A stretch of 64,000 nt of DNA from Amoebophrya sp. A120 (lineage: Eukaryota; Protista; Dinoflagellata): positions 1,248,493 through 1,312,492 of the forward strand of contig CAJINV010000019.1 of assembly GCA_905178155.1 (NCBI GenBank), read 5' to 3'. The notes beneath the pieces were generated by a model. That model was given only the letters and a program-made list of their open reading frames with translations, was not told the origin of the DNA and made no database searches. Positions 18,726-64,000 of this stretch are shown one piece after another (positions within the stretch are counted from its first letter, which is position 1; every line of letters begins with the position of its first letter). The position numbers were made by a program, and so were the translations under genes.

Positions 18726-21700
18726 ATGGACGAGGCCAGCAAGCTTTCCCCGGGGAAGACGGAGTCCACCGCGGTGCCCTCTCCCTCGACGAAGGGCGGC
18801 TCCCCCGAAAAGGCTTCGGAAGAAGAAGTGCGGGCAAGGCTGTTCAAGGTACAAAGAGTTTTTTTTTTATCCCAGTAGCATGCTTGCCAAATAACAAAGA
18901 AATAAGGTTGTTGATCAATTGTCGCTTCTAAGTAAACTGATGACTCGTCAATCGTGGATTCTCTGCATCGTTGGATATTAATTAAGAATTTTAGACTTGA
19001 TCATGAAAAAAACACCAGGGCCTCGGACGCGACCTCCTTTTGTCGATCAAAGAAGGCTATCGAATGCAAATATTTTCGTTTTGGTTTTGGGTCTGCCAGA
19101 AACCCGTAAAAGTAGTAATTTGAATAAAAGTTAACCCACTTGCACGACCCCCGCACGACACGCTGCAGGTTTTTTTTTTGTAGCCGATATTATACGATGC
19201 AGCTCCACTCCTGCGCGGTCACTAGGCATGAATAGATTTTATCGGAGCCGGGGTTGTCATCTCAAAGCCCAGCTGCTGAACACTACATATTGATCTCGTC
19301 TCGACCCAGAAGATCGACGTGTATTTGCAATCCATAAGGGCGACATGCACAAGGCGCAAGGGCTATCCTGAGTAAAAACGTACCCACACCATAGTCAAGA
19401 TGGGGAATCGGCTAGACAAATCCACAAGTTTTGGCTGTTTTGCATGACAAATTTGGATTCGTAGTGTAGTGCTGTTTGAGCTAGCTCAGCAGCATCACAG
19501 ATCTAGCATACCATGCTGATTGGAGCATGACAAATTGCAAAACACGACTAGAAAATGCTTCTCATGGGGCTCCGCATGAGAAACGTTTTCAGGATGCAGA
19601 TTTGCATGACAACTCTGGTGTGGGTACGTTTTTACTCAGGATAAGGGCTGATCATGGGCGGTGTGGAACTGGATGCCCGGGAGCCGGTGACCGGGCGTAT
19701 CAAATGCAAAAATGTCTGGGTCTGGGAGGATGGAACTTGTGATGCTGTCTGTAGATTCCAAAAAAGTCTGTATTGCATGACCAGCAAAAGGAGTCCACAT
19801 TGTCCTACGCGGAGAGGGCATCTCTCATGCGGAATACGCACCAGAAAGCCCTCTCAAAATCAGTGATGCTAGGCCATGCATTACAGGCATGATGCGTCAT
19901 GCAAAATATGCATCACAAACCTCGCACTCTTCCAGACCCCGACATATTTGCATTTGATAGAGCGCACCGCTTTGCATCTCGCCGTGCAGATATCAGGGGA
20001 AAAACAAGTTTTGTTTCAGTGCAACAACGTGACTGATCGACATCAAAGCGCCGTCTACATCAAAACCCATAGAAGAAGCAGATCCGCGGCCATTTTTTCT
20101 GTCAGAATCTTCACGTTTAACAAACACAAACTTCTAGGGTAGAATATGTGCTGTCGTGCTTTCTATGATCTGCGAGAAAGCACAGAATTAAAGTTGTAAG
20201 GTCTTGCACTGAGTAGAACATGCTTGTTTTTCTGTCGATACCAAAAGACCGCCATGGGGGTCGTGAAGCTGCTCGTGCAACACAAGATTGACGTGAACGC
20301 GGTGGACCGCATCGGTGAGGTCACAGCCCTGCACGTCGCTGCGCACCGCTATGCCAAAGAAAAAAGCTAGCCTAGCAGTATGATCGTTTGATTTGGGAAG
20401 CAAAACAAAGCGATATAGGCCGTGTGAAATTTTTAAACTCTGTCATGGGCCGCGAGCTGTCTAGGGCATTGCAGTGTTCTTGGAACTGGGCAGGAGAAAA
20501 TGACACAAGCTTTTTTTTGCAGCAAGTGCAAGTGATGTTTTCGCATGACAAATTCGACATGTGCAGTCGGCTATGCATGACAAATTCGAGATGCTAGCTT
20601 CAATTTTCTGTTGGATAATTAAGGGCAGATGGTGATGCTGAAGCACTTGCTGGCCGCGAAGGCGAATTTGAACCTGGTCGGCGTGGAGGGCGACACTCCG
20701 TTGTCGCGGGCGGTATGACAGTGCACAACTCCCCCGCGTTCCCATTTGTCATGCAGAATACCAAATCCACGCTTTCCCTCCTGTCACTATGATGCATGAC
20801 AAGTTCTGCTAGCCCAAATAGCACTACAATCCAGCTCAAATTTGTCATGCAAAACCAGCATTCTTGCTGATGCTTGTATAACCGTTCATGCTATAGAAAT
20901 GAGGGGGAGGGGTAGTTGTGCACTGTCATAGGCGGCTACGCAGGGCCACTTAAAGGTGCTCGACTCGCTTATCTCTAATGGGGCCATCTGCGACCTGAAG
21001 CAGCGGCAAAGCATCAACGAGTGGCAGCAGGCCGAGATCGAGATGAAGCAGCTGGCCCTCCAGCAAAGCACGACGGCCTCGGGGTCGCAGCGCGGGCGGA
21101 GCCCCATATGATGGTGAACAACTCGCTCCCACTTGTTCTTCCCTTGACTTGAATAAACGCATAATGTCTACTTGCAGCAACAGAAGCAACGCCATCGCCA
21201 AAAAACAAGTATAGCTTCTGCATGACATTCACAATATCGAACGAATTCTGACAGTGATTCATTAATCACAGTTCAATATTCGGGAGGTTCATCCTGGTCC
21301 GAAATTTGTTTATGTCGGCAGTGTTTATTTCTGCAGGCGAGAAACCGGATTTGGTACTTCTGTTGCATTTACATTTGAGCGGAAATTGAAATTGTAGTAG
21401 GGCAAGATGTTTACTGTCATACTCCACGCGCAGTATGCAGGGCCATGGCGACCGCGCTTTCCAACCCGCAGTTCGGGACCGCCGGGAGCCGGTGTCTGCG
21501 CTAGTGAATATGGATTGCAAAAATATCTGGGTCTGGAAACTTGTGATGCTAAAATGTGGATGATGGAAACACACCCGAATGCAACCCAGCATGACAACTT
21601 TCCAAGACGCTTTCCCATAGGCAATCCGCATGAGGAACTGCGTTTTTGCATGTACAAAAGAGGCTCCGACTTTTGTTGGTTATGCAATACAGATTTTCTA

Positions 21701-22865
21701 GGTATGGAAAGCTAGCATTACAAGTTCCACCCTTCCAGACCCAGACATTTTTGCAATCCATAGTGAAGGCCGTGAAGCGAAACTGCGGCATTCCGGTGGT
21801 TAAAACGCTGCTAGAGATATCCAACGAGAAAAAACTGTGTTCGTGCCACTTGCTTGATACAATGGACGAAAAGCATGACAAATTCACTCTGCGTGACAGA
21901 CTTGAAGACGTGTCATGCCTTGCCAGCACGTGCATTTGAAAAGGAAACAAACACTCAGCTCGGAAAAATCAATAGGTGCGCAAGTACCTAATCACCTGAG
22001 AACGGCCCTGGCCTCGCATGAGAACAAATCTAACTGTCTTGCATGGGGTCGTGCAACTACTTACACGACGAGCTTACACTAAACAGAGTTTTTTCCCCTG
22101 GACAGGACATCGGGTGCGACTCCAATCGGACGGATGAAAAGATGAACCGACCACTCCACGTTGCGGCCCACTACGGAAACGCGAACACGTGCCGGCTCTT
22201 GCTCCATGCGAAGGCTGCGGTGAACGTCGGTAACCACCTGGGCCGCACGCCCCTGCACTTCGCGGCGCGTTCTGGCCACGCCCGAATCTTCCGCATGTTG
22301 CTCGACTACAAGGCCGAAATTAACGCCGAGGACCGCTTTGGGCAGACGCCACTCACCCTGTGCTGCGACACGATGATGTATCCACAGTAATTTTCAATTT
22401 GCATCACTACACTGTGACAAATTTTTGCACTTTTGCATAAAGAGAAAGTTCACCTCCTGCCAGCACTACTCAAGTACTTTCATCCTACAACTCAGCACTT
22501 AACATTTAGAAGCACTGCAGGGTTTTGATGAAGATGTTATGTTCATCTTTCGGAAGCAGAAGTTCTAGTACATGCACCGTGCACTGACTTGTCCTTGTGT
22601 GGTAAATTTGTACTTGCATAAGACGCAGAAGCTGGTGAAGGACAACGGTGGTACCCCCGGATACTCCGACGAACACAACGATGTTTCGCCACCGGTTTCG
22701 CCCGCGCGGTCCCTGTCCCCCGCACGGAGCCCGAGCCCGGACACCGCGCCGCGATTCAACCCGGCCGGCGCCAGTGCCGGCAGCCAACCCGGCTCCCCCG
22801 CCACAAAACGGTCCCAGGCCAACAAGTTGCAGGGCTCCCCGGCCTTCTTCCAAGAGCGACACTAG
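18726..22865 (+). CDS. Ankyrin repeat protein (~421 aa); 1 canonical intron (18849-19018) and 10 introners
   Basis: Splicing out each element plus 5 nt gives a 1266-nt open frame with ankyrin motifs GRTALHLAVQ, VTALHVAAHRG, GDTPLSRAATQGH, RPLHVAAHYGN, GRTPLHFAARSGH and GQTPL. Confidence 0.9.
19058..19336. mobile_element. Introner, degenerate family A
   Basis: tatcgaatgcaaatat...gtatttgcaatccata; DR aaggc/agggc; frame restored. Confidence 0.8.
19364..19643. mobile_element. Introner family B
   Basis: TIR tatcctgagtaaaaacgtacccacacca; DR agggc/agggc. Confidence 0.95.
19698..19959. mobile_element. Introner family A
   Basis: TIR tatcaaatgcaaaaatgtctgggtctgg; DR gggcg/gagcg. Confidence 0.95.
19991..20240. 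mobile_element. Introner, singleton, diverged
   Basis: tatcaggggaaaaacaag...cttgtttttctgtcgata; DR gcaga/ccaaa; frame restored. Confidence 0.8.
20350..20617. mobile_element. Introner, singleton, diverged
   Basis: tatgccaaagaaaaaagctagc...gctagcttcaattttctgttggata; DR decayed (accgc/attaa), but removing element plus 5 nt restores ankyrin HVAAHRG. Confidence 0.7.
20714..20930. mobile_element. Introner family C
   Basis: TIR tatgacagtgcacaact; DR ggcgg/ggcgg. Confidence 0.95.
21107..21421. mobile_element. Introner, family C-like, diverged
   Basis: tatgatggtgaaca...tgtttactgtcata; DR cccca/ctcca. Confidence 0.8.
21509..21762. mobile_element. Introner family A
   Basis: tatggattgcaaaaatatctgggtctgg...ccagacccagacatttttgcaatccata; DR gtgaa/gtgaa. 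Confidence 0.95.
21818..22104. mobile_element. Introner, singleton, diverged
   Basis: tatccaacgagaaaaaactgtgtt...aacagagttttttcccctggaca; DR agaga/ggaca. Confidence 0.75.
22379..22620. mobile_element. Introner, strongly diverged
   Basis: tatccacagtaattt...aaatttgtacttgcata; DR tgatg/agacg; frame restored. Confidence 0.65.
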
Positions 22866-22989
22866 TGGCGAAGGGTTGTCGACATATGATAAAAAGGGAA
22901 AAGTTTTTGTTTGGGTAGAACGATCAGCATGTATACGCAAAACATGAAACAAATCCTAAGCTGCCAAGTGTATCCAACATTCGCATATA

Positions 22990-23160
22990 GCATATCCTGT
23001 TTTAACAACTATTCACTCACTTACAATTTCTTGTAACATCGGGACCACATGTGCATAAAAACATGCGGCACAGACCCAGTCGAAAGTTAGCAAAAGCATA
23101 TCCTGTTTTCAACTCACTCTTCTTACAAATTCTAATCAGCAACCATGGGCATATCCTGCA
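22990..23160. repeat. Degenerate short direct repeats downstream of the ankyrin gene
   Basis: gcatatcctg occurs three times (~22990, ~23097, ~23149); two copies continue tttt(a/c)a(a)c...cttacaa(t/a)ttct. Confidence 0.5.
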
Positions 23161-24210: not shown

Positions 24211-27200
24211 ATGAGGCACCAGCACGACCACAAGAAAAGGTTCACTTACGTCAGACTTCTTCACCTCCCAGAGACCAAGCTCGCGATGCCCTGCCGCCTC
24301 ATGCACCGGAACGTCCCGACTTTCCGGAAAGAAGTGAGAAAGGTACTGCTAGTACCGCAGAAAAAATTTCATTTCTCGACCCGCGTCCTCGTTTTCCTTT
24401 CCGCCCTGAGCCTCTTGCTTTTTGTTTTTTCAGCCCGCGGACAAGAGGTTAACAAAGCAAGTGCAAGAGATGAACCTGCAAAAGCTGGAACTGCTGGGGT
24501 CCGCGAACTACTTGTGTCAGACGCTCATCAACGACCACCTGAGCACGCTTCTAGCGGCCGCGCACTCTCCACCACCTTCGCAGAAAACGAGGTACATTTT
24601 AAGTATCAAGCGGCTGATAGTGTGGGGGAAGTTTATCCTGAGTAAAAACGTACCCACACCAGAGTCAGGATGGGGATTTTGCAACACAAACCTAGGAGTT
24701 TTGTGAGTCACGCATGACAAGTTGCACTCTGCAGTGTAGTGCAGGTTAGCAAGTGCAGCCGCGTCACAGATTCATCTGCTCATCCTGTTCACAGCATCAC
24801 AAATTCCAAAACACGATTGAAAATGGCTCTCATGCGGATGCGCATTACAAGTCTTCCTGTCTTTGCAAATCTGCATTACAACTCTGGCGTGGCTACGTTT
24901 TTCCTCAGGATAAAGTTTATTGGTGCCTCAGCTGCGGGATGTACCGGATCACTGGTGCGAAGAAGCACAGAAGTGATAGTACGGAGAGGGAGAACAAAGT
25001 TTACGGAAAAACAAACACAAAAACCGCGGTTTCCGTCGTGCTGCATGCAAAGGAGAGGAAAATTTTTACCATGTTCCACGCGGAACGGGCCTCTGAAGGC
25101 GTTGGAGACCAACATCACGAGGACAACGTCTTCGGGAAAGCCGAAGACCGCGCGTCCGTACGCCAGTGCCTGTGGTACCCCTTTCCCGGCGGGGGTGCGG
25201 CGGGGGAACGAGGTGAACAGGAGAAGGATGAGTTTGTTTCTTCGTCATCAGCATCACAAACAGTGCTTGGCGCGGAAAAGAAAGCGCTGAGAGAGATCCA
25301 ACAGAACCTTGTGAGAGCTTGGGATAAAGAAAGCAAGGACAAAGCTGGAGCTGCTTCCGGTACTAGTAGTGCATCAGACGTCGTCGACTTCGAAGCAGAT
25401 GAGCCTAGAAATTCCCTCGTCCTTCCCTGGGTGCGCGGGAAGGAAATTCGAATAGAAACAACACGACCGCCGGATAGTGGGGAGGAAGCGCCGTCATATT
25501 TCTCCTTCGCCAACTCCGCTGCATTGACGCAACCGCAAGGAAGTAGAAATCAGAGGAACAAAGAGCTTCTGACCACGAAGAAAATCACGATTTTGAAGCG
25601 AACCAAGAGAACGAATTCATCTGCAGCAGGAGACAACAGCTCACGTACTACAGGGTCCTCTACTACACCAGCAGCTCCAGCTGCAGGAGATCAACATGAT
25701 AATAAGCTTACAGAGTCCTCTACTTCTACTCCGCCTTCCTTCTACACTGCGACGGAGTACCAATCCGTTTTCGACGAGAACGAGAACTACTCGCCGCCCT
25801 TCCTGCCAAAACTCGATCCCCGGAACATTTTTGACAGTGACTGCGAGCGGTACTCGGAGCTTTTGCACGGGGAAATCCTGGCGCATTTCGGCTTGAGTGG
25901 ATTGGGCAGCGACAGGTCACTCGCACTGCTGGACTTGGTGGCCGCTTTTGATAGTGCAGCTGGTGATGTCCTCGACGGCCGTGGTGGTGGTGGGTCAACA
26001 CCATCTTCTGCCAGTGAAAAGGTAAATATCTTCCAGCCAGAAGTACTGGCAGCGGCTGGGCTGGCGCTGCCGGGCGAACTGGCCGTCGTGCTGCAGGATC
26101 CGGATATCAAATGTAAAAATGTCTGGGTCTGGAAGATTGCCAGGTTTGTCATGCATATTCTGAATGACCCTGACCCATGATGTCTGTGATGCATGCCCTA
26201 GCGTCACAGATTTTTAGAGGACTTTGCGATGCCTCTACCGCATGAGAGAAGCCCTCCCCGTGTAGCACAAACTGGAGTCCTTTTGCTAGGCATGCAATAG
26301 AGATTTTTTTGGAATCGAAAGACAGCGTCACAGGTTACCACCTTCCAGACCCAGACATTTTCACATTTGATACCAAAAATGCCGGCACAATTTCTCCCAT
26401 TAAATTTCGCCGCGGGTCAGAACTTCAGCATGCGCTTCGATTACGAATCAGAAGAGATTCTGCTCGGGACGATGAACCGAAAAGGGGATAATTATTTACC
26501 GGATGTCGCCAATCATCCAGTTCCAGCGGGAGGATTTGATGAAAACGTAGTTCTTGAGAAGAAAGTATCCAAGGGCGAATTGCTGGCGGTCAACAAGTAC
26601 AGCGTTCCGCGGTCTTCAAGAACGACGCCGCCTTCGGATTCTCACGACGGAACAGAAGAAGTCAAGGGCTCGCCACAACAACTTTTCCGGCGCGTGAAGC
26701 TGAACGTCCAGTATTCCCCCATCAAGACTCTGACACTACTACTCACGGAAGAGGGCGAGGTTTTCACGAACCTTGCGACGAAATTGGACGACATCGACCC
26801 GGTGTCCGGGAAAAACGCCGGCCAGACGGACAATGTTTGCGCGGAGACGAGTAGTAGAACTACGGATGAATATGATCAACAGTATGATGGCAGCATCAAT
26901 CAAGGAGCTTTGTCGGACGACGAGGACGACGAGGAAAGCAGTCTTTTCTTCCACCATGCAATTGCTGGAGCCGCAGGGTTATATCCTATGGGGCAAGGCG
27001 GGACCGGTGCAGCTGCTCTATCTCTTGAAAACCAGCAGAGCCTATGGAAGTTTTGGGGCACGCAAACCGTGGACGACCTGGAGTGCGTCGGGTTTGAAGC
27101 CCATCTCTCCCGGAAGAGAAAACTGATTCTGTTTTTCGAGAAAGATGTCCTTGTCCAGATTGAGGTGCGGATTAGTGGGTCTACAGGACCACAAACGGGA

Positions 27201-30200
27201 GCAGGAGCGGCGGATGGAAGGGCCAAGATTTTGAGAACGCGGGTCAAGAATTTTAGGATTTCAACATCACTACCTGCTTTTGCAGAAAACCGAGATGAAC
27301 AAGCGCCAAAAAGAACTCCTGTGCAATTTTCTTCATCCTTCCAGCTTCCCGAGTCCGAGTTTCAGCCGAAAGAAGAGTGGGGCTGCCGCAACTTCGAGCA
27401 GGAGGAGCGGGTTTTCAAGTCCCAAAACCTCCCTATGGAACTGTCAGGATTGAAATTGACAAAGTTGAAAAATTTGTGATGCATAAAACCGATACCAGTG
27501 GGAAGCCCAATTTCTAAGCGGTGCATGACAAATTTCGACGTCATCGAATTCCAGCTTCTCATGCTGTTTGGCGAAAGAAGGTATCCTTTGTCATTCTACT
27601 TTAGCAGCTCTATCCCAAACCCGAAACAGGCTCACAGTCGACCTCTCTTGCAATCCCTGCAAGAGAGTCACTTCGTGCCTTGCATTTCATGCATCACAGA
27701 TTAATATTTCAACTTTGTCGATTTCAATCTTGACACACCCATACTCCCCCTGCCCGCGGAGCACTCCTACCAAAGTGTGATACTGGCGAAGAGTGCACGG
27801 CTGAAATCTTTAGCGTTCCAGGACTTGGAGAAAGCCGTGGGGGACGGCGGGGGAAGAAGAGGTGGAAGCGACGATCCGAGTAGAAATGATGGCGATCCAC
27901 CCGACCATGCGAGGAGGACAGCATCATCATCGTCGTCTGACTCTCTCCTTGCAGGAGCCTTCAACTTCGAAAAGGCGCTTTTTGCGCTGCCCGGAGAGGT
28001 CGAGAAACTGACGAGGGTCCCGCTACCGCTATGAATTGCAAATATGTAGTCTGGGTCTGGTAACTTGTCATGGTAAATCTGAAGCATACAAAAATCTGTG
28101 TTGCATGAGTGCCAAAAGCTGTCCACTTTCGACCAAGTTCTGAGGCAGTTTCTCGCGCAGGATAGGCATGGTGGAGACCTCGCAGAGTCTGTCATGCTAA
28201 GTCCCGCATTCCAGACCTCAGCGGTCATGGAAAACCTGCATGACAAGTTGACACTCTTCCAGACCCAGACATATTTGCATTTGATAACCGCCCCAATTGA
28301 ACGAGATCCAGCACCTCGAATTTGACTACTCCGCGATAACGCACTCGCAAAAGGCACTGTCCCCCCGGTTCGTGAAATCGCACGGGCATTTCTTCATGAA
28401 CGTGCCGAACGGGCTATCACAATGAAAAACGCCCCCACCCCCGAACTTGGGAGCATTTGTATTGCAAACCTTTCCAACAGAAACACTCGCCCTCTTGCAT
28501 CTAGCAGCATCACAGATTTCCAATCGTGAATAGCGAAAGTTTGTATTGCAACAGATCCCAGCAAGAGTGGCGCTTGTCATGCAAGCAATGCTATATACGC
28601 TTACGCTTACGCCTAGACTCTGCATCACAAAGATTCATATTCCTTTCATGCGTGACAAAAAGTTTTCATTCGGAAACTTCGCATCAAAAATTATTGCAAC
28701 TTTGGGGGTGGGGGCATTTTTCACGGTAATACGGGCAGATGGCGTTAACTGCGAAGTCGGACACGGTTTTGTCGGAAAAACTTGGCTATCCTGTGCAAAA
28801 GTATCGTAGTCGTACTAATTGCAAATATGCATGACAAATCTCCTTCCTAAGGTAAAACAGCACTACAAATTCCACTTTTCTTATTGCTAAAATTAGTGAT
28901 GCAATTTATACTAGTACGATACTTTTGCAATGCATATTGGCAAAGTCGACGCAACCTTCCTTGTCACAAACTACACCAACACCGGGCAACAGGAAATCGT
29001 GTCGAATGTCGCTTGGTCTTCAGGAGCTGCAGATGGAAGTAGAAGCAGTAGCACCAGCACAGCAGGAGCTTCACCTTCAACTACAAAGACCAAAACCGCG
29101 GAGTGTGTCGTGGAAAGTTTACCCAGCCCGAGCTCTGCGGACATCGCGGATTTACGGCGGCAGGCGTCGTTTCGGGAGACGTTTGTCAAGGCCGTTGCAC
29201 TGGTCGATCCCGCAAATGGTGCGGTCCGCGAGTGCAATTTGTTCTCTTTACAGATTGGGAAGGGGAGGATTCTGCACCTGTTTGTCGATGAGAAGGATCC
29301 GACAATTGTACGGAAAATCATGCTGTTCCGCGGGCGACACCCCGACCAAGCGTTTTCCACGGTGGTTTTCCGGAATTGGAGAGTAGCTAGGCGGGAAAAT
29401 GATGAAAGTGCAAATGCGCCCTCCGAGGAACTGCATAACGTGAAGTTTCTCCACCCGTCCCCGAGTTGGCACTGCCACAAGGTGGATACGAGTCAAGTAG
29501 GAGGAGAAGTAGAAGGCAGTGGGAGTGGCCCGGTGGAACTGGCATCAACATCCGAAGAAAATAAGCTTTCTCGCGAAGTAGATGATCACATCAAGATCCC
29601 ACTGCACCACCGGTCCAGCGCTTTCAAAGACAGTCTGTTCGCGTTTTCCGGTGCTCTGGGGCAGTACCACTTGCTCGCGATTTATCACAGGAAAAAAGTG
29701 TTACAGTTACACATTTGTTGGAGTTTCTGCATCACAAAGTTGCTCGACATGGCAAAGAAAACCTGTGATGCGCAGACTATAAAGGAAAACACGTATGAAG
29801 TGAGGTTGGCAAGCATCTCCTGCATGACAGAGGTTGTCTGTCTTGCTTGTCTCCCATCAGAGTGTGTAACTGTAACACTTTTTTCTCACGATACGATTCC
29901 GCTTTTGTCCTTACCGGGGGAGCTGGATCTGCTCGTGAACAAAGACCGGGCGTTTGGACTCGACGCTGTGCGGGACTTATCCTTCTTCCATTTCGAATTT
30001 GCGGCGAGGAAGTACGATGGAGGAGGAGCGTCCTCGTTCGGAGCAGGATCTGGCGCCTCTTCCACCGCTTTATTTTCCAGAGAACCAGAACCACCAGGCA
30101 GAGGCATTGGTTCGCTCTTTCCGCTCTACCGCGGCCGACTGGCGGTGAATTTCGCGCGGAGGCTGTTCTACTTGACCGCACACAGCCGAGGTGCTGGTGG

Positions 30201-52200: not shown

Positions 52201-55200
52201 GAATGAAACACAGAACTATTTGTGTTGCCACACCTGCAAGACCTCGACTCTCTAGCGTTGTTTTCCCTTTGGAAGCGCGCATGGCAAATTTTCTGTGTCA
52301 TGTGTAACAAACTTGTGATGCAGATCTTGCAAGATCATCACAGTGAAACAGCTTTTTCGTGGGATAAGTCCGTTACCCGCGTAAATTCGGCGAACGGTCA
52401 TTGGGAGGCGTACAACGCGGAAGACCAGATTTGGGTAGACAAGGGGGAATCGTGGTACGCGCCGAGTCCGGGGTACAACTGCATGTTGTTACTCTCCTGG
52501 GTCCCGTTTTGGCTGTTCCTTTCCTGGTACTGCGCACACGTGTTTTCCGCCGGGGAAGGGAAGTCGTTGCCGTACTTTTTTCTCTTCTCGAAGTCCTATT
52601 GGTTTGGCGTGGACCACAAGAAGCTGCAGGAGCAGATTGCGGTCGATGACACGATCGGGAAACTGCAGTTAGAATCGAAGCAAACGAGCGGGATCCACTG
52701 TTTGAAGCTCGCCAAAGCGTACCAGCTGCAAACGGCCTTAAGGGAATTGACAATCGAGATGAAACGGAACGAGATTACGTGTTTACTGGGGCACAACGGC
52801 GCGGGGAAATCCACGTTGATCAACTTGTTAACCGGATTGCACCCCCCGACCCACGGCCACGCGTTCTTCGACGGATTATCAATCGTGGATGAGATCGCGA
52901 CGATCCAAAGGAAAATGGGGATCTGCCCCCAGGACCATATATTTTTCAGTGATTTAACCGGGAGACAGCACCTGAAATTCTGGATGATTTTTCGCGGGTA
53001 TCAAGAGAAGAAGGATCCTCTACTTCGTGATGCTGTAGTTGCCAAAGAAGAAGATACCGTCGCCGAAAAGGAGGGCGAAATCATCGGCAAAGAGAAGGAC
53101 AAGAAGAACGGGGGCACAAGATCAAGACAGAACACTATGGACGAAGAAGTCGAGAGGCTTTTGAAGGCGGTAAACCTCGATTGGGCGGCTGAGAAGTTAG
53201 TGAAGAACTACAGTGGCGGGATGCAGCGGAGACTTTGCGTCGCAATCGCCTCCATCGGGAATTCCACGGAGGTGATTTTCCTTGACGAACCTACCACTGG
53301 GTTAGACCCGGTGTCGAGACGGCAAATTTGGGATTTTATCCAGGAATTGAAGCGGGATAGAGTCGTGGTTTTAACCACCCACAGCATGGAGGAAGCCGAT
53401 TGTTTGGCCGATCAAATCGGGATTCTGTCCCAGGGGAGGCTGAAGTGTCTAGGGACGAGTCTTGCGTTGAAAAACAAGTACGGGTCAGGGTTTCGGTTGA
53501 CATTTTCGTTAGACTTGACGAAAGGTTCGGCCCGGGAAGTGCGGAAGTTCGTGACGGAGAGACTTCCCGGCGCGAAGGTTTTGGTGTCTGCCGGGACTAA
53601 TTTGACGATGGGGGTTATCCCACGAAAAAACTGTTTCACTGTGATGGTTTTGCAAGATCTGCATCACAAGTTTGTCACACATGACACAGAAAATTTGCCA
53701 TGCGCGTTTCCCAAGGGAAAATACGCTTGAAAATCCAATGTCTTGCAGGTGTAGCAAGACAAATAGTTCTGTGTTCCATTTTCTGCATTACAAGTTCACA
53801 GTGAGAAAATTTTTTTTTGCGATAGGGGTCCCACGGTCGTTGACTTCCATCATGCCGGACTTTCTGCACGCGATCGAGGAATTGGTCAAGGACAAAGAGA
53901 ATTCCATCATCATCGAACACGGGATTTCCAACTCCACTTTAGAAGAGGTGTTCATGAACATCACGCAAACGGTATCCTGAGTAAAAACGTACCCACACCA
54001 TAGTTGTCATGCAACTCTGCATGCTTAAAATGCTTCTCATGCGGAGCCCCATGAGAAGCATTTTCTAATGCGGTTTTGAAATTTGTCATGCTCCAATCAG
54101 CACGAGATACTAGATCTGTAATGCTGCTAAACTAGCTCAAACAGCACTACACTACGCGGACAAACTTGTCATGCCAAACAGCCAAAGCTGGCTGATTTGT
54201 CTAGCAGATTCCCCATCCTGACTCTGGTGTGGGTACGTTTTTACTCAGGATAGACGGAAACACCGAGCAATTTGTTCATCAACAACCAAGACGACGGGTT
54301 CGGGCAGGCGAAAATCTGCGTGTTGTGCTGCGCCAACGAAGCCATCGCGGTGACTGCGTTTACGAAGGAGGGGGTGCCGTTTTTGGTTGACGGGGTGATT
54401 TGCCGGTCTTGTGCCGAGGGGCTGCACGACCCGGAGAAGGTCAAGAAAGGGTTGATGAAGGCAGTACCGAATAACAGCTCGTTGCGAGGGCTCTTAGGAG
54501 GTGGATCAGCTTCGGGGACGAGTGGCAAGGCGGGTGATGCTGGGTTCTACAGTTTAGACGAACACGAAGGGCAAGAAAAAAATATTAAAACCGGTGAAGA
54601 ACAAACCGCTGGCGCGGAAACGAGCGGCGGAGGCGTTTTAACGGAAACGCAAATCGTACCGGATAATTACAACGTTTCTTCTGGTGTCGCCACGGAAGGC
54701 GCGCACAGTGCAAGTCGTTTTGAGGAGGCCGGGGAACATCAAGAGGTGTTTGTGACGCACGTTTGTGCCGCTGGTAGTGATCATGGGGACAATAGTTGCA
54801 ATTTCTATCGGGCACCTGTTGCAGTGTCGAAGGAGGTCGCTGGTGTCTTGTCGCGCAGAATCATCACAATGGAGCTGGCAGGGAGGAGTTGCAGATGCGC
54901 GACGACACCTCGCTCAGGCAACAACAGTCAAAACGGGTCAGTCACACCAGCCTTAGGGGTTTTCCGATCTTCTGAAAGAAGCTCCTGCTCTGAAGATGTT
55001 GAGAAATCTCCGACTTCTGCCTTGAGTCATCATGGAGTGCAACTCGACATTGCGGACGATTTTTCGTGGCTATCAGGAGACGAAGAGGAGCAAACGCCTG
55101 GCACTTCTTCCGCGTGGTCATACCGGCGGACGAAGGCGGCAAGAAGTACTTCTAGAACAAACTGCTCTACCAACAAGATTCAAATCGCCGAAACAACAAG

Positions 55201-58200
55201 CCCTTTCCACGACGACCTGAGAGAAGGGTCCCATCAAATGCAGCAACAGCAAGTCCAGCCTCCCGGTGGCGCGTTTCTGATGACAACCCCGACCGGGGAC
55301 CCACTTCTGAACGCCAGTGGCCAGCAGATTGTGGTGGACATGTACGGGAGACCCATTGATAAGGACGGAAACGTGATCGGGCCCAGCATCGTCCCTAACG
55401 CGCCACAACCGCCGGGGGGTGGTGGAGGTGGAAGTGTGGCCGCGCAGTCTGGCATGCAGCAACCCGCCGCGCAACCGGGAACAGCTTCGCAGCCGGCGTT
55501 TCAGACCCAGCAGTCGATGCAAGTTCCGGGAAGTACTATGGGGTTCAATCAGCAGCCCCACAACAAGAATTTTCCACAAACTTCCACCCAACATCAACTC
55601 TCCGGAACGGCGAAACCTTCTGATACGGCAACCTCCAACCTCCACCTCTACTTCCAGCAGTCCCTCGCGATTCTCCTCAAAAACGCGCAAATCCAGGCAA
55701 AGCAAAGGTACAGCAACTGTGCGCGGTTGTGCTGCGTGTTCTGCTGCACGTGTTGCGGTATTATTGTTGGGCTGTTACTTGCCGGCGCGATGACCGCGGC
55801 CGCTTCTACGAATCTTTTGCTCACCGAGTTTGATTTGGAGGAGAACAACGAGAACCGCGCAATCCCTTTGTCCGTCGCCGGGTACAATGGGCAGATCGAG
55901 CGGGAGTTAAATCTCCGCACCGGGACCCCAATCTACGGCCCAACGTCCGACATCCGACTCCCAACCGACCGCGACAAGATCTACATTGCGAATCGCACGG
56001 CGGACATTGATGCGGAGCCGGACATTTACTTTCGCTACCATTTCCGGGAGTTGAAGAAGAACTTGCTCATGAAATCCGTTGATTTACGGTTTCAAGACAT
56101 TGGGGCTGCGCAGACGAAGGTGAATTTCATATCCTGAGTAAAAATGTACCCACACCAGAGTCAAGATGGGAAATCCGCTAGACAAATCCGTAAGCTTTGG
56201 CTGTTTCGCATGACAAATTTGGACGCGTAGTGCAGTGCTGTTTGAGCTAGCTAAGCAGCATTACAGATCTAGTATCTCATGCTGATTGGCGCATTACAGA
56301 TTTCCAAATCGCATTAGAAAATGCTTCTCATGGGGCTCCGCATGAGAAACATTTTAAGCATGCAGAGTAGCATGACAACTATGGTGTGGGTACGTTTTTA
56401 CACAGGATATTTCAACTCCGTTGAACAGTTCCCCATGTACATGCTGTACCAGATATTACAGTGAAAAATGCCCCCATCCCGGAATTTGCAGAAGTTTGTC
56501 ATGCAAAGTTTCCAAACGAAAGCTTTTTGTCTTGCATCAAAGGATTGCGAGCGTTTCTGATGCAGAATGTGGGTGCGCAAGGTGCCTTGTGCATAACAGA
56601 CCCGGCTGCTGTTGGGCTGCTTCGCAACACAAATTTGACCTATTCAGCATGGAAATTCTGTGATGCTGAGATATGCAAGACGGGGAGTGTTTCCGTTGGA
56701 AAGGTTTGCAATACAAATGCTGCCAAGCTGGGGGTCGGGGCGTTTTTCATTGTAATACCAGATTGGGGAAGAACACGTGGCGAGTCTAGCAAGTATCAAT
56801 GCCGACAACACGCATCCACAGTTGCTGAAACGAACAGTTTATCCTGTGCAAAAGTACTACTGCTCGTACTAATTGCACGAGATATGCATGTTAAATCCAA
56901 CTTTCTACCTCAAATAGCATGACAAATTGAATTTTATTCTTGGGAAAATTTGTAATGCGTTTTATACTAGTGCGATACTTTTGCAATGCATACAGTTCCT
57001 TCCAGTTCAGATTTTGTCAACCTGTACACGACGAAAATTCCTTTGCTGGAGAAGTTCGGGTACCAGTTGAACTATATCAAATGCAAGTATGTCTGGGTCG
57101 GGAAGGATCCGAACTTGCGATGCGCATTTTCGAACACAGAAAAATCTCTCATGCATAGGTAGCAAAAGCTGCCCACTTTCTGTCACCAAAATAGGAGATT
57201 TCTCATGCGGGTTCGGCATTGCGGAAGCTTATCGAAAACTGTGATGCTAGAGCTTCCATGCCAGACCTTCTCTGTCATGCAAAAAGAGCATGACTCTTCC
57301 AGACCCAGATACTTTTACATTTGATAAACTACTGTCCGGCGCAGAATTTCCGGTTTTCGCACATCAACCCGAAAACCGATTTGGACGAGGAGAAGATGTG
57401 GAAGACGGTTCTGCTATCCTATGTAAAAACGTACCCACACCAGAGTTGTAATGCAGATTTGCAACGACAAAGACATTTGTGATGCGCATCCCCATGAGAG
57501 TCATTTCCAATCGTGTTTTGGAATTTGCGATGCTGTGAACAGGATCAGCAGTTCGATTTGTGATGCGGCTCTCCTTGCTAACTTGCACTACCTTACGGAC
57601 TGAAACTTGTCACGCGTGACTCCCAAAGCTCCTAGGTTTGTGTTGCAAAGTCCCCATCTTGACTCTGGTGTGGGTACGTTTTTACTCAGGATATCTGCTC
57701 GAATCCTACGGGGTGGACGAATCGCACTTGTACTACCACGGACCTTTATCTACCATCACGCATTCCAAGGCGCGGTTCCGGAATGAGGAAGCCGGGCGCG
57801 GTGTTCCCGGAGCCATCTGGGACTCGGGCTACGAGTACCACAATTTGTGCGGTTTGCAGACGCGAAGTTGCCAGTTTTCGAATTTTTCCTTCTCGAACAA
57901 TTACACGATTTCCGTGCCGGAGGGGTATGCAAGAAAAAAACTGTGTAAGTGTAAGCCTGTGATGCAGGAAATGCAAAAGTGTATCCGCTTGTCATGCTGG
58001 ATGTGCGTCATAGGCAACTTTCATGCGTGTTTCCACGTGCTAGCTGCGCATGACAGGTTTTTCCTGTAATGCAAAACGAACTTGTTTTTCATATTCATTT
58101 CCTACAAAGTTGCACTTACGCATTTTTTTTTCCTGGATAAGGGGCTATACGCAAGCAGTGCGTCGGTATCGGCTACGACTGACAACTCGTTTTTCAAAAC

Positions 58201-61200
58201 ATACACGCCAGTATGCGGAGGTGCCGGAAGTAGTTCATCTTCGGGGGGTGATTCGACAAGTCCTGTTCCGACAGTCATCCCGCAGCTGGGGAATTTGAAA
58301 TCCTGGCGGAAACGCTGGCAGTCGAGAAATCAAGTGTTACTAATGGAAAGGTACTCTGCTCAGGAGAGGAAGGAGATCTTGCAAATTTTGAACACCTTCT
58401 GCGGGGGCGCCATGCCGACGAGCGTAGTCCCATCGGGGGGCACCGCGGCGACGGCGGCGCAGAGTGAACAGTGCAGGAAGTTGGCGGAGAAGTACGCGAC
58501 GGTGAACTTGTGGTGGGAGAAAGGGACGAGTGGTGGAGGGGCAGGGATTACATCGTCGTCGTCTTCCTCAAATAAAGATTTCGACCTGTCCTGGCTTGGG
58601 ATTGCGGTGCAGAATGAAAATGGTATCACCGTGCAGCAGGACGGCAATACCAATACCTCTTACTGGTCGAATCAAGCGCGGTACACGACCATGGGGATCT
58701 CACTCTCCAATGTCGGCGATTTTTCGCAGGTAGATCCAGAGCTGCTGCAAACCACGCCTAGTACGGGGCAAGAAATAAACAAACCTCCTCTCACCGGCCT
58801 CCAGGGAAAATTCCAATACGCACAGAAGCTCTACCGCCTGCAGGCGCAGCCCGTATCAACTGCAAAAAAGTGTCTGGGCGGTCTGGAAGATTGCAACTTG
58901 TCATGCTTTTTGGGACACTAAAGAAATCTGTATTGCATGACCAGCATCAAGAAGGGTCCAGTTTGTGCTACACGGACAGGTCATTTCTCATGCGGAAGGT
59001 GCATCAGGAAGCCCTCTAAAAGTCTGTGATGCTAGGACATGCATTACAGGCATCATGGATCTTCTCCCAGACCCAGACATATTTGCAATGCATATCCCGA
59101 AACGAGTAACAAATGCTTGAAAACCTCCGACCCGGCGTCGCCCATCTACGGGCAAAACACCGACGTCGTGGCCTATGACGGCAACGAGGGATCGGCCCGG
59201 CGGGGCGGGCAAGGCGCGCGGCAGGAGTTCATCCGAATGGGCAACCCGCGATGGCACGGGTACGGGGATAAGCCCGATTACGTGTATTTGGAAAACTTCA
59301 CAGCGATGCCGTACGTGGGGGCGGAACAAGAAGAAAACAACAACTCATCTTCAATCGCAAGCACCTACGCGGCGGCGGCGGCGAACATCACGGGCCTTTT
59401 TTCCGACAAGCCCTTTCCCGACGTGGCGCTCACGGTCAACAAAGCGGACAAAGTCCAGGGCCAACTCGACGTGACCTTACACATCGCCGCGCGGGATTCC
59501 GCTTCGGACATAGCGCTCTTCCGGCGGAACATCGAAAACGCGCGGTGGAGCGAGCCGGACCCGGGTTACATTCCCTTCCTCTTATGGATTGTAAAAATGT
59601 CTGGGTCCTCTGGAAGGTTGGAACTTGTGATGCTAACTTTCCATACCTAGAAAATCTGTATTGCGTAACCAACAAAAGTCGCAGCCTCTTTTATCATGCA
59701 AAAACGCAGTTTCTTATGCGGATTGCCTATGAGAAAGCGTTTTGGGAAGTTGTCATGCCGGACTGCATTCGGAAGTGTTTTCATCATGCACATTTTAGCA
59801 TCACAAGTTTCCAGACCCAGACACTTTTACATTTGGCACCTCTCCTTCCTCGACGACTACACGGCGCAAGACTCTTTATACGACTACGTCTACGCCATGT
59901 TTGCCTGGTCTTCGGATGCGTTGTATCAAAGTGTGAAAAATCCCCCCACCCCATATCGAAACGGAAACTTCTGTTGCTGGATTTGTGTACACAAATCAAC
60001 CCTGTCTTGCAGTGAGGCACTACAAGCAACGCCTCAGCCTGCGTAGGGGTGTTTGGTTGTAGGCACTTAGCATGACAGAGGCCTGCAATGTACGTGAAAC
60101 AGCATTACAAATCGCCTCCATAAGGCTGCGAATTCTTTGGATTTGCCTTCTTGCAAGAGAGACAGGATTTGTGGTCACAAATCGACATCACAAATTTTTA
60201 GGCACATACGTCTTCAATATGGGGAGGGGGGATTTTTCCTCTCAATACGTTGCGAGCGGCGATTTCGGATCCGGCGGACAAAGTTTCCGGCAGCTGCCTA
60301 TGACCCGCTCAGACGTTACAATCTCAACTGTTACAATAGAATCTGGATTTTGTGATGCAAGAGGTGCATTATCTACCCAACTCGCATAGGTTTGCGCATG
60401 ACAAGTTCTGGAGTGCCAAACCGCACTAGAATCTTCCGAAATTTGTATTGCGAAAAGCGCAAAAATACTCTGCACGTTCCTCATGCTCTTCATGCAACAC
60501 AAATTCCAGATTCTATTGTAACGTTTGAGATTGTAACACCTGAGCAGGCTATACTGCCAGTTAGATTTTTTGACCCCCACGTCAGTGATGCAGGTTCACA
60601 CGCTGGTTTCCGCGTTTGCGAACGGGATAAGACTGAACCTCGGCTTTCCCCCCGTCGAGTCGGATGTTCTGTCCCATTTGCCGTATTTATTCTTCAGTAG
60701 CCAGGAAGTCTTATCCCCCGACGCCGGGATGCAGACGCTGGCCTTGCCGATTCTCTCCTTACTGTGGTTCCCGGTGATCACAACAAGCTTCGGGTACGAA
60801 AAAAGATTCGGGCTACTGGAGATGATGCGGATCCAAAGTTTATCCACGACGATCTACTGGCTAACCAACTACGTCTGGTTCTTCATTCTGTACTTCTCCA
60901 TCATCGGCTCCTACCTAGCTTTGTTCTACGCCGTCGCCTCCGACAACTACGATATTGGCCAGCTTTTCTTCATCCACTTTCTCTGGGGCCACTGCCAGAT
61001 CGGGCTGTCTCTACTGTGCGCCGCAGCGTTCTACAAATCGGAGTCTTTGACCGCGGTGACGTACTTCTGGATGTCCATCGCCTACCTGTCCGCCGGCCCT
61101 TTGCTAGAAGCCGCAACGATCGACGGCGGCCCGATGCCGTGGGCCCTGATTGTGTGGGGACCGACGAATTACGGCAGGAGTTTGGTGCTGGCGTTAAAGT

Positions 61201-64000
61201 ACAAGGAAACGGACAGTTCGAAATCGATGGATTTGTGGGAAAAGTTCACGGCGAGCGAAGAACAAGAGTACGGGGAACTGCTGCTAGTCCAATTCTTGGT
61301 CGGGAGTTTGGTCTTACTCGTCGCGATTCTCTGGCTCCAGGGGGTACACGTGGTCGTGTTTGAAAAGATCCGGCGGTTTGTGATGGAGAATATCGTGGAC
61401 CGGTGGATGGGGAACATCAAAGGGGAAAAGAGTGTGAAATCAGCTGCTGATAAAAAAGAACAAAATGAAAATCCATCCGCAGAAACTACAGAAGTTCCTG
61501 CGCAAGAAGAGCATCCTCAACCAGCAATCACAATTCAAGAACGCATTTCGTCTAAAGAAACCCCGATATTACAATGAAAAATGCCCCCACCCCCGAATCG
61601 TTGGGAGCATTTGTATTGCAAACCTTTCCAAATGAAACATTCGCCCTCTTGCATCTATCAGCATCACAGCTTTCCAATCGTGAATAGCAAAAATTTGTAT
61701 TGCAAAGGACCCCAGCAAGAGCGGCGCTTGTCATGCAAGCGAGGCGATACACGCCTAGACTCTGCATCAGACAAATTCATACACCTTTCATGCATGACAA
61801 AAAGTTCTCAGTTGGAAACTTCGCATCACAAATTTTCGCATCGTTGGGGGTGGGGGCATTTTTCACTGTAATACCCGACGAAAGAAGTTCTGGCGAATCT
61901 CTCGGCGGACCAGAAAATCGATTCCGATGTGCGGGTATCAAATGCAGAAATGTCTGGGTCTGGAAGGATCCGAACTTGTGATGCGCATTTTAGAACACAG
62001 AAAAATCTCTCATGCATAGGCAGCAAAAGCTGCCCACTTTCTGTCGCCAAAATGGGGGACTTGTCATGCGGATTCGGCATTGCGGAAGCTTCTCGAAAAC
62101 TGTGATGCTACAGCTTCCATGCCAGACCTTCTGTGTCATGCAAAAACAGCGTGACTTATTTTCCAGACCCAGACATTTTTACATTTGATAGCGGGAGGAA
62201 GCCGAGCGGATTCTGAAGTCCGATATCGCCGCAATGAGGCTCGCCGCGAACGACAGTTTTGAGGAAGATGACAGCAATGTGCTTTATTCCGATGCTGCTG
62301 CTGACCCCTCGACATCGAAAGCAAGAGTCGATGCGATTCAATTGCGAAACATCTACAAGCAGTACCCGGACGGGAAAAAAGCGGTAAATGGGGTCTCGTT
62401 CGGCGTGAAGAAAGGCGAGTGCTTCGGCCTGCTCGGCCCGAACGGCGCGGGCAAAACGTCGTGCATCAACCTCGTGTGCGGGCTGCAGAAATTGTCGAAG
62501 GGCTCGATTGTGGTGTCTGGGTACGAAATTTCCGCGGCGAGAACGAGGAAAAGCTCTACTTCACAAGGCGATTTTTTAAACGGCTTGCAAAGTAGAACTT
62601 CCGGCGACGCGTCCCTTTCCCAACTGTCACAGTACCTTGGTGTTTGTCCGCAATTTGACTGTGTTTGGAACGATCTCACGGTCGAGGAACATCTCGCTTT
62701 GTACGCAAGGATCAAGGGCATTTCGGGGTACAAACAGAAAGTCTTGGTGCGCAACGTCGCGGAATCTGTCGCGTTGGAGGGGGACGCTTTCAGAAAACTT
62801 GCTTCCGAACTTTCCGGGGGCATGCGGCGGAGATTGTCCCTCGCAATTTCGTTGGTCACGAACCCCGCCGTTCTGATCCTCGATGAACCCACCACCGGCC
62901 TAGACCCGGACACCCGCGCGGGCTTGTGGCAGGTGATTGCGAATGAGTCGAAGAAGCGGGCGGTGGTCTTGACGACACACAGTATGGAGGAAGCGGACGC
63001 ACTGTGTGAGAGGATTGGGATTATGTGCAGCGGAAAATTGAAGTGTGTGGGAACCCCTTTGCACTTGAAGAACAAATTTGGGAACGTATCCTATTTAAAA
63101 ACGTCCTCCTCCCCACCCCATTATAGTTGTCATGCAGATTTGCATCTACAGAAAAATCTGTAATGGACCCCCAGGATCAGGTAGACGAGGTCCCAGACCG
63201 AAGTGGTAGGCGCTTAGGGTGAACTATGTATGTAGCGCTTAGGGCCCTTCCGTACGGCCAATTTGTATGCCCGCAACGGGGTTCGCCTAAGTCGGTCATT
63301 TGTATGCAAGGCGTTGGGTTACCCGGTCGGCAGAGCCGATCCACAACGAAGGAACATTCGCAAGAGGAAGGGCGGAATTTGTATTCGTGTTCTGGGATGT
63401 GTAATGCTGTAAACAGGATGAGCAGGCTTCTTTGTGATGCGGCTGTCCTTGCTAAACAGCACTACAATACAGATGGAAACTTGTCATGCATAACTTCCAA
63501 AACTTGGAGACTTGTGTTGCAGATTTACCAACTTGGCGATGGGGTGGGGACGTTTTTACTCAGGATAGATCGGGTACATGCTCACAATCGCTTTGAACTA
63601 CGCGTCGAGTGAGCAAATGTCGCTGCTTATCAAGTGTAAAAATGTCTGGGTCTGGAAGATTCTGAGACTTGTCATGCATGTTTTGCATTGGCCAGGATGT
63701 CTGTGATGCATGCCCTAGCATCACAGATTTTTTGAGGGCTTCGCGATGCCTACTCCGCATGACAAATGTCCTCTCCGCGTAGCAAAAATTGCATTCTCTT
63801 TGCTGCTCATGCAATACAGATTTTTTTGGAATCCAAATTCAGCATCACAAGTTGCATTCTTCCAGACCCAGACACTTTTACATTTGATACTGCTGAAGCA
63901 GAAGGAGGTTCAACAGAACAGAATCTTGGCGTTCCTGAAGAACCAGTGCAAGCTGTCGACGGTTTTCCCGATCGAGAGTCGGGGGGTGTTACTGCAGTTT
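49297..64000 (+). CDS. Full-size ABCA-family ABC transporter, running off the window end; 21 introners and no canonical introns seen
   Basis: Two TMD-NBD halves. First half: IVREKRNGTLKLMRVMGL, GHNGAGKST, YSGGMQRRL, FLDEPTTGLDP, TTHSMEEAD, STLEEVF. Second half: YEKRFGLLEMMRIQSL, GPNGAGKT, LSGGMRRRL, ILDEPTTGLDP. The frame is continuous after removing each element plus 5 nt. The start could be 49297 or 49357. Confidence 0.93.
50689..50999. mobile_element. Introner family G
   Basis: tatggatgtgtcaggtttgaaatcgtcaaagttgaaa...tttcaactttgacgatttcaaacctgacgcttccata; DR cgctg/cgctg. Confidence 0.95.
51125..51270. mobile_element. Introner family E
   Basis: Family E TIR; DR cctgc/cctgc. Confidence 0.93.
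51328..51606. mobile_element. Introner family B
   Basis: Family B TIR; DR gtggg/gtgga. Confidence 0.95.
51839..52107. mobile_element. Introner family A
   Basis: Family A TIR; DR tccgg/tccgc. Confidence 0.93.
52158..52366. mobile_element. Introner family H
   Basis: tatcgcaagaagaaactgtatcactgtga...tcacagtgaaacagctttttcgtgggata; DR cgtct/agtcc. Confidence 0.92.
53616..53824. mobile_element. Introner family H (reverse complement of 52158)
   Basis: tatcccacgaaaaaactgtttcactgtga...ttttgcgata; DR ggggt/ggggt. Confidence 0.95.
53973..54252. mobile_element. Introner family B (opposite orientation to 19364/56130)
   Basis: Family B TIR; DR aacgg/gacgg. Confidence 0.95.
56130..56409. mobile_element. 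Introner family B
   Basis: Family B TIR; DR tttca/tttca. Confidence 0.95.
56454..56757. mobile_element. Introner family D (opposite orientation to 28415/61567)
   Basis: tattacagtgaaaaatgccccc...ggggcgtttttcattgtaata; DR ccaga/ccaga. Confidence 0.95.
56840..56992. mobile_element. Introner family E
   Basis: Family E TIR; DR cagtt/cagtt. Confidence 0.95.
57075..57326. mobile_element. Introner family A
   Basis: Family A TIR; DR aacta/aacta. Confidence 0.95.
57415..57693. mobile_element. Introner family B (opposite orientation to 24634)
   Basis: Family B TIR; DR tctgc/tctgc. Confidence 0.95.
57926..58139. mobile_element. Introner, singleton
   Basis: tatgcaagaaaaaaactgtgtaagtg...cacttacgcattttttttcctggata-like end; DR agggg/agggg. 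Confidence 0.92.
58854..59094. mobile_element. Introner family A (similar to 19698)
   Basis: Family A TIR; DR gcccg/tcccg. Confidence 0.93.
59583..59838. mobile_element. Introner family A (opposite orientation to 21509)
   Basis: Family A TIR with 3' end mutated to ...tttggca; DR cctct/cctct. Confidence 0.92.
59924..60247. mobile_element. Introner family F
   Basis: Family F TIR; DR cgttg/cgttg. Confidence 0.95.
60299..60553. mobile_element. Introner, singleton with long TIR
   Basis: tatgacccgctcagacgttacaatctcaactgttacaatagaatctgg...ccagattctattgtaacgtttgagattgtaacacctgagcaggctata; DR ctgcc/ctgcc. Confidence 0.95.
61567..61873. mobile_element. Introner family D
   Basis: Family D TIR; DR cccga/cccga. 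Confidence 0.95.
61936..62190. mobile_element. Introner family A
   Basis: Family A TIR; DR gcggg/gcggg. Confidence 0.95.
63087..63567. mobile_element. Introner family B carrying a ~200-bp internal insertion
   Basis: Family B TIR; DR gaacg/gatcg; 481 bp versus ~280 bp for most other B copies. Confidence 0.9.
63628..63889. mobile_element. Introner family A (similar to 26105)
   Basis: Family A TIR; DR ctgct/ctgct. Confidence 0.95.

Follow-up and report, generated by a model that had tools for sequence, protein, structure and literature searches.

A shared, regularly spaced internal motif in the TAT…ATA introners of Amoebophrya sp. A120, a candidate binding site for a common transposase

A total of 47 elements that start with TAT, end with ATA and carry inverted ends were catalogued, four of them added by hand, in the 64,000-nt stretch of Amoebophrya sp. 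A120 DNA analysed here (hereafter the window). Deletion of each element together with one copy of its target duplication restores, on the plus strand, a 3039-amino-acid frame over 21 elements; the same rule restores a 2020-amino-acid frame over nine elements, also on the plus strand. Both strands of the window contain 131 exact matches to the motif GCAT[GCT]ACA[AG], compared with a mean of 3.66 in 100 shuffles (maximum 9), and 127 of the 131 fall within 19364..63889, where they are clustered in the TAT…ATA elements, as the initial annotation of this DNA had claimed for that region. The 47 elements (12,429 bp) hold 121 of the exact matches and the remaining 51,571 bp hold only 10, in agreement with the earlier remark that the motif is rare in exons and intergenic DNA. 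Seven of these 10 lie in three GT-started introns resembling decayed elements and the other three are single matches, so that about 51 kb outside elements and their remnants carries the motif at chance level. Motif remnants were recorded at 4232..4355 (three, with no recognisable TAT…ATA ends) and in GT-AG introns on the minus strand at 38976..39016 and 39593..39706 (two each).

Shuffling of the element bodies alone, with 2-, 3- or 4-mers kept, gave 1.3, 2.3 and 21.8 matches, respectively, against 120 observed. Chance composition was rejected as a sufficient cause of the motif on the basis of these shuffles (2.3 of 120 when trinucleotides were kept). The initial annotation had let its proposal stand or fall by enrichment over background, and enrichment was found in the window (131 against 3.66) and in the bodies (120 against 1.3–21.8). 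Sites scored with a weight matrix (PWM) occur at 19 per kb inside elements and at 0.75 per kb outside. The full site is wider than the nine-base motif, at about [TAC]GCAT[GCT]A[CG]A[AG][AG]TT, and about 4–6 sites are present per element, spread over the whole 110–330 bp body. At least one exact match is present in 42 of the 47 elements; 40 elements have two or more, and 23 of these carry both orientations. The description of the motif as recurring several times per element in both orientations hence does not apply to the five that have no exact match nor to those with a single orientation. Near-matches had been put at about seven in 43176..43427 and four to five in 53973..54252; our recount gave four exact matches, and six at no more than one mismatch, in each, which is close.

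The elements were grouped by their ends, and body identity groups them in the same way as the terminal inverted repeats (TIRs). In the following, exact sites are given in parentheses and "skipped" denotes absence from the contigs of runs X1–X4 described below. Type A is represented at 19364..19643 (4), 24634..24912 (4), 30624..30879 (3; skipped), 51328..51606 (5), 56130..56409 (4) and, reversed, at 53973..54252 (4, at 54004, 54083, 54116 and 54166, all on the minus strand) and 57415..57693 (3, one orientation only); a type-A-related element with a motif-free internal insertion lies at 63087..63567 (3). Type B is found at 19698..19959 (3; skipped with 5 bp), 21509..21762 (3; skipped), 26105..26372 (2), 28030..28286 (body, 2), 31606..31865 (3; skipped), 35106..35368 (3; skipped, with an orthologous copy in the related-genome stretch L056), 39254..39518 (3), 39846..40097 (2, all sites in the same orientation), 51839..52107 (2), 57075..57326 (2, one orientation only), 58854..59094 (3), 59583..59838 (3, right end damaged), 61936..62190 (3, all in one orientation; missing from an X1 contig) and 63628..63889 (5); a further type B element, 43176..43427, lies inside an alcohol dehydrogenase gene, with exact sites at 43216(-), 43247(-), 43339(-) and 43387(+). 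Type C occurs at 20714..20930 (3; skipped) and 47644..47858 (3; missing, together with one duplication copy, from an X1 contig), type D at 27434..27743 (3) and 50689..50999 (5), and type E at 28415..28731 (3), 56454..56757 (2) and 61567..61873 (4). Type F is present at 59924..60247 (2) and at 34069..34452 (2), the latter with an internal insertion relative to the former, and type G at 28787..28936 (1) and as bodies at 51125..51270 (2) and 56840..56992 (2). Type H comprises a decayed copy at 21818..22104 (1; skipped), 52158..52366 (2) and 53616..53824 (2), which is reversed relative to the preceding element, together with an H-like element at 57926..58139 (4); type H2 is found at 29683..29893 (3; skipped) and type I at 60299..60553 (2). 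A decayed type K element lies at 20350..20617 (2), where the splice register is fixed by its joint, and a decayed type-K-like element at 16525..16794 has no motif site. Further decayed elements are located at 19058..19336 (no site at 7 bits of the PWM; removed in the spliced contig by length arithmetic), 19991..20240 (no site, best score 1.9 bits; skipped with 5 bp), 21107..21421 (no exact site, two PWM sites; skipped) and 22379..22620 (no site at 7 bits; skipped with 5 bp).

Judged by sequence features, the TAT…ATA elements match the published A120-type introners, and hence the kind of element is already known. Passages of the earlier reports describe A120 introners as non-canonical introns of about 250 nt in many families, with inverted repeats consisting of TAT, seven looser bases and AAA (PMC7789003), and with short direct repeats of 3–5 nt (PMC7789003, PMC12130899). 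Consistent with this, A occupies positions 11, 12 and 13 in 660, 700 and 719 of 772 ends, where the TAT itself was imposed by the search and types C, D and I depart from the pattern. The elements are repeated in families, as A120-type introners are, and have the features of MITEs: they are short, carry TIRs and target duplications, and are without coding capacity. Among 335 elements picked by their TIRs, 261 have an exact 5-bp target duplication and none has one of 6 or 7 bp, and the flanks of the duplications show no base preference. The families had been said to share only the TAT/ATA ends and the motif; this does not hold, since the 5-bp duplication, an A-rich block at positions 11–15 (most types) and the spacing of sites are also common to them. 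The CpG observed/expected ratio is 0.60 in elements and 1.08 in other DNA, and TG/CA is enriched in elements. Inspection of nine long elements revealed two to three to be pairs of adjoining elements and the others to contain inserts that lack the motif and have no frame longer than 150 amino acids.

Contigs of runs X1–X4, presumed to be RNA and from one sample, lack the element plus 5 bp at each of the 12 element joints listed; since a GT-AG intron is missing from them too, they are taken as spliced transcripts. X1 pieces at 47–63 kb agree with this rule without mismatches. A GT/GC-AG intron is possible in a duplication register for only two of the 47 elements. The raw RNA runs X9 and X10 gave 13 and 6 reads, which lie on elements and are uninformative on splicing here.

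For analysis of larger numbers, assembly JACKZZ01 of a related genome (91% identity to the window at the one orthologous locus) was searched with the type-B end pattern, which yielded 167 stretches from 157 loci, about 0.6 Mb of unique sequence in a sample biased to type B. A total of 386 elements with 1127 exact matches were called. Another 464 exact matches were not part of a called element; 164 of these are close to locus ends and many adjoin TAT-type ends, and the catalogue for this assembly is therefore incomplete. Statistics by type were based on 423 elements of up to 400 bp, of which 369 fall into 13 end types and 54 are untyped and were excluded from type-weighted counts; these end types do not represent independent lineages, and membership is as low as 3–5 in K, L and M.

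Analysis of site positions revealed a spacing rule. In 11 of the 13 end types, 60% or more of the members carry a pair of same-direction sites 30–33 bp apart, compared with 9–32% under the null; the values for H2 and I are 38% and 10%. A site facing the end lies 30–33 or 39–43 bp from the terminus in at least 60% of members in 10 of the 13 types, whereas such a site is found in none of 51 type G, none of four type M and five of 13 type H2 elements. In narrower terms, the pairs are spaced by 31–33 bp and the end-facing site is usually located 31–32 or 39–43 bp from a terminus. When each type is represented by one element, the phase coherence at about 10.5 bp reaches 0.47 (null, 0.14±0.08), and it remains at about 0.36–0.37 against 0.13 when pairs at 29–34 bp are left out. 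A lattice of 16.25 bp is as strong (0.52 against 0.47 for 10.5 bp; 0.44 against 0.37 without the 29–34 bp pairs); type B fits 10.5 bp only, and types A and I fit 16 bp better. The periodicity check proposed in the initial annotation did not single out one period: a helical phase of 10.5 bp and a lattice of 16 bp are equally compatible with the spacing of these types, which are not fully independent.

The 16.25-bp lattice would fit a reading in which the motif either survives as a passive relic of one ancestral element made of repeats of 16 or 32 bp or arose by CpG decay. The enrichment of TG/CA in elements agrees with this reading, and so does a faint inverted half-site that is found in many types 15–16 bp inside their direct pairs; from such sequence traces the families probably share a deep ancestor. 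Common ancestry may hold, but it does not explain why the motif was retained. When the motif sites were cut out, cross-family local scores averaged 14–24 against a null of 16.7±2.4, which is the shuffle level; the exceptions are A and J, with a score of 53 (J is a derivative of A), and A and C, with a slightly raised score. The initial annotation had named alignment of all families to one ancestor with no excess conservation of the motif as the result that would speak against it, and the masked families do not align apart from A–J and, weakly, A–C. The spacers have hence diverged to shuffle level while the sites were kept, and, together with the scarcity of motif matches in trinucleotide-keeping shuffles and the excess conservation described below, this makes the passive reading highly improbable in our judgement. 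CpG decay was rejected by the tests as a sufficient cause.

Conservation of the motif was analysed at several levels. In JACKZZ01 the commonest 9-mer (422 copies) has G at position 5, and its one-change neighbours have C (210), T (157) and A (7) at that position, with G at position 7 in 117 and at position 9 in 157 copies; positions 1–2 are almost invariant. In 10 trios with the core called in the outgroup, 26 of 385 core positions differ compared with 196 of 1220 other positions, and in all 16 trios 35 of 641 compared with 353 of 1985, the seven core positions having been chosen from the same data, sites called in the third copy and outgroup status assumed from identity. Across the nine motif positions, split-half diversity amounts to 0.098, compared with 0.212 elsewhere. 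The core is conserved about two- to three-fold above the rest of the body, and the excess over all comparisons, with CpG columns set apart, is two- to four-fold. Within 13 subfamilies, variants shared between copies strike the core at 0.25 times the body rate and private variants at 0.61 times (p=4e-6; p=0.002 with all nine positions), and the TIR shows the same pattern. Most shared variants have already gone through transposition, and the conservation therefore points to selection at that step. Private variants remain depleted to some extent, perhaps through transposition events that were not sampled or through selection on the host. Site density declines only weakly with decay of the duplication (rho 0.09, p=0.08), which weighs against the transposition reading. 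A single orthologous copy shows a core substitution and a 13-bp deletion through the last site.

The residual depletion of private mutations agrees with a role after insertion, in which the sites are bound by a chromatin protein that serves in silencing, in packaging or in transcription across the element, and host selection maintains them; the CpG depletion likewise marks the elements as treated differently from other DNA. However, old copies lose all sites, the orthologous copy has lost part of one, and chromatin binding would not require the constraint seen on the distance between site and terminus. We consider this role very unlikely.

The same depletion of private mutations in the core could mean that the motif acts in the pre-mRNA, either as a splicing enhancer bound by a protein or through pairing of inverted copies that folds the intron, and the reported lack of U1 in these parasites (PMC7789003) would agree with such a role. 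The predicted folds of element bodies are indeed more stable than those of shuffled sequences, with a mean z of -2.5 and values below -2 in 27 of 40 bodies; in these folds, 88 of 213 sites are paired to a second site. However, matches are 65 in sense and 62 in antisense, without strand bias, and families insert in both orientations, as seen for types A and H. The outermost inverted sites of 150 elements show no covariation (59 against 54.8 and 131 against 132.1 expected), and RNA pairing was for this reason rejected as a sufficient cause. Elements with sites in one orientation only exist, one of them absent from an RNA contig, and the best-kept spacing is that of same-direction pairs, which are unable to pair. 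Several families also fix different bases at the variable position of the motif. Three decayed elements without a site at 7 bits (19058..19336, by length arithmetic, 19991..20240 and 22379..22620) are removed by the element-plus-5 rule in one contig. Because these motif-free copies are removed exactly from a spliced contig, the motif is not required for intron removal; it may still help it. An action of the motif primarily in RNA is, in our view, rather unlikely. The lack of strand bias, the lack of pairing covariation and the splicing of motif-free copies together indicate that the motif most likely acts on DNA during transposition.

Overall, our analysis suggests that the motif is a candidate subterminal DNA-binding site of one shared transposase of the integrase type, which acts in trans on all families, and we hold this to be moderately probable. 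The initial annotation had proposed a binding site for a common trans factor, either a transposase, an RNA-binding protein of intron definition or a chromatin protein. Enrichment and excess conservation support a trans factor as such; among its candidates the RNA-binding protein is disfavoured, a general chromatin or promoter factor is weakly so, as the motif shows no excess outside elements, and a transposition factor appears to fit the sequence evidence best. From the observed arrangement, conservation and splicing we infer binding, a protein and a step in transposition as follows. Several transposase subunits would bind the motif sites on double-stranded DNA, and the spacing of sites would position them so that the two element ends pair. 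Catalytic subunits would then cut at the TAT…ATA ends and insert the element with a 5-bp stagger. Copies that lose sites would stop spreading yet could still be spliced. Against this account stand type I, which lacks the direct pair, and types G and M, in which no end-facing site is present in 51 and four elements, respectively.

Evidence for an action on DNA linked to transposition would fit equally well if the sites bound a sequence-specific DNA-binding or DNA-bending protein of the host, needed by the transposition complex, while the transposase read only the ends. The motif is not a clear copy of the TIR in most types: a half-site at the extreme end is found only in types C, E and H2, and the end form TAT[GCT]ACA[AG] occurs at 17 of 32 C, 11 of 18 E, 8 of 26 H2 and 2 of 36 H ends. 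By comparison, the subterminal repeats of Emigrant copy half of its TIR (PMC1636448, in the relevant passages). A host cofactor would explain a constant motif under changing TIRs, and it has a precedent in IHF, which is described for some Tn7-like elements in passages of PMC10201428. However, a host protein should have targets of its own, and the three matches outside elements and remnants do not exceed chance. We therefore regard a host cofactor as unlikely, although as a possibility to be taken seriously. A bolder reading has no autonomous element at all: a single domesticated integrase-type complex, encoded by the host, would recognise the spaced motif and spread the introners, which number tens of thousands and are unrelated in sequence. 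By marking the two ends on DNA, it would also aid splicing without U1 and thereby couple intron birth to removal. We put this forward as speculation with a small chance of being correct.

Against the preferred reading, a shared transposase, stand the results of searches for a mobiliser. No transposase or integrase was found with Pfam among 172 open frames of at least 230 amino acids from about 0.6 Mb, about half a percent of the published genome size, nor among six frames of the window, and none of four long TIR pairs enclosed an autonomous element. An Rfam search gave no match. The TIR patterns gave 0, 0 and 2 matches in viral contigs, the two being chance matches in coding DNA, and none in prokaryote genomes. 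The pattern of two sites plus an end gave two viral and five prokaryote matches without further clustered sites, and these were set aside as chance. The 2021 report counted about 30,000 introner copies in 1,954 families and, in the passages concerned, found no transposase in A120, which was taken to rule out a general mobilisation by transposases (PMC7789003); the question of what moves and what splices Amoebophrya introners dates from that report. According to passages of a later report, most A120 families are classed as "TIR DNA, unknown", and family 38 has integrase-like homology and TIRs; the text describes it as without Ginger termini and target duplications, and the dataset lists it as Ginger with a 5-bp duplication and TA/TA termini (PMC12130899).

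One motif, one spacing rule and a uniform 5-bp duplication suggest that the many families form a single system with one enzyme in common. The motif provides a sequence tag with which the autonomous partner can be sought in the full assembly and a bait for pull-down, and it offers a way to separate transposition signals from splicing signals in an extreme case of intron gain. The kind of element is known and so is the kind of signal; the form of that signal found here, apparently undescribed, unifies many families.

Comparison with the A120 introners of Farhat (2021) and Gozashti (2025) revealed the same TAT-type inverted repeats, short direct repeats and organisation in families (PMC7789003, PMC12130899, in the passages concerned). 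Those passages handle the families separately and mention no shared internal motif or spacing rule, whereas here one motif joins 13 end types; the direct repeats given there are 3–5 nt, whereas the duplication here is 5 bp throughout. A description of the internal motif or its spacing was not found in the open-access literature on Amoebophrya introners nor, among the matches listed, for the motif strings combined with transposon, and the motif string is absent from the supplements of PMC12130899, file 14 excepted.

The TA…TA ends and the 5-bp stagger suggest, on the evidence of the ends, a DDE enzyme resembling retroviral integrases, related to IS3EU/GingerRoot or Ginger2/TDD. IS3EU/GingerRoot elements have similar TA…TA termini, but their duplication is 6 bp (0 of 335 here), and GingerRoot has TIRs of 100–150 bp (PMC10045372, PMC6839031, in part). 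Ginger1 and Ginger2/TDD end in TGT…ACA in contrast to TAT…ATA; TDD-4 and TDD-5 share the 5-bp duplication but have TGT ends, other Ginger elements have 4 bp, and a target preference is described there whereas none was seen here (passages of PMC2836005). Since membership in neither group is borne out, and no group in the relevant parts of PMC10045372, PMC6839031 and PMC2836005 combines TAT ends with 5 bp, the class of enzyme is taken only as a lead. The ends of Tn7-like and CAST elements carry several transposase sites each, their TnsB-site spacing acts with a periodicity of about 10 bp, and a host bending factor may join; these are autonomous bacterial elements with longer sites, and the likeness would be one of architecture (PMC10201428, in part).

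A further likeness is to the subterminal repeats of mariner, Sleeping Beauty, pogo, CACTA and hAT elements and of the Emigrant MITE, whose repeats are bound by Lemi1 proteins: there too a short motif is repeated in either direction inward of the ends of a non-autonomous element (passages of PMC1636448). The elements described here share this trait, as the motif is repeated near both ends and conserved above the body. Elsewhere such a motif belongs to one family and its binding was demonstrated (PMC1636448, in the same passages), whereas the putative site described here is common to families that do not align in their TIR interiors or bodies, and it fills bodies of 110–330 bp.

The introners analysed are elements with TAT…ATA ends, terminal inverted repeats (TIR) and 5-bp target duplications. 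In window 1-16500, calling of TAT…ATA elements yielded no intact one, and a 1212-aa frame (12907-16545) is without a Pfam match. Host genes include an alcohol dehydrogenase (PF08240) at 42318-43933. At 49213-64000, a frame of great length encodes an ABC transporter (PF00005) and is broken up by 21 elements.

Comparison of the element ends revealed that TIR positions 4-10 alternate among a few words, that the two ends of one element differ there, and that shared variants per column amount to 0.47 at these positions against 0.10 at positions 11-28. A half-site of the internal motif GCAT[GCT]ACA[AG] often opens types C, E and H2. Introners carrying motif-free inserts were found at window 63087-63567 and, in the related genome (JACKZZ01), at L032:632-1465, L034:10307-10763 and L061:571-1051; short tandem-repeat tails occur in three of these insert-bearing introners, and the inserts are probably other mobile elements nested within them.

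Alignment of the related locus L056 with window 34898-38783 showed 91% identity, and the element at 35106 is common to both. L056 also possesses a type-B element at the site corresponding to window 38783, which is absent from the window; since the match to the window is confined to the left junction, the L056 contig may be chimeric. Length differences of 3 bases (41 versus 44, 32 versus 35 and 39 versus 42) predominate among indels in the L056 alignment and in the element families, even in non-coding DNA and between element copies. The elements are CpG-poor, with an observed/expected ratio of 0.60 within them compared with 1.08 outside. Two neighbouring frames matching C-5 DNA methylase (PF00145) are present in the related genome (L021:2628-6083).

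In the raw RNA runs X9 and X10, whose species label is the same, reads agree with the ends of type-B elements and not with the exons; hence, this end type seems also to be carried by a more distant strain.

GT-started introns with motif remnants and without intact TIR occur at window 4077-4400, 38958-39092 and 39575-39750, the last two ending in AG; these are likely former introners turned canonical introns. A single splice register fits all 12 listed joints at which spliced transcripts skip an element (window 19694-35369): the intron starts 1 base before TAT and ends 4 bases after ATA. The joint 20348-20622 is compatible with this register only. In this register the first T of the element occupies intron position +2, as does the T of GT.
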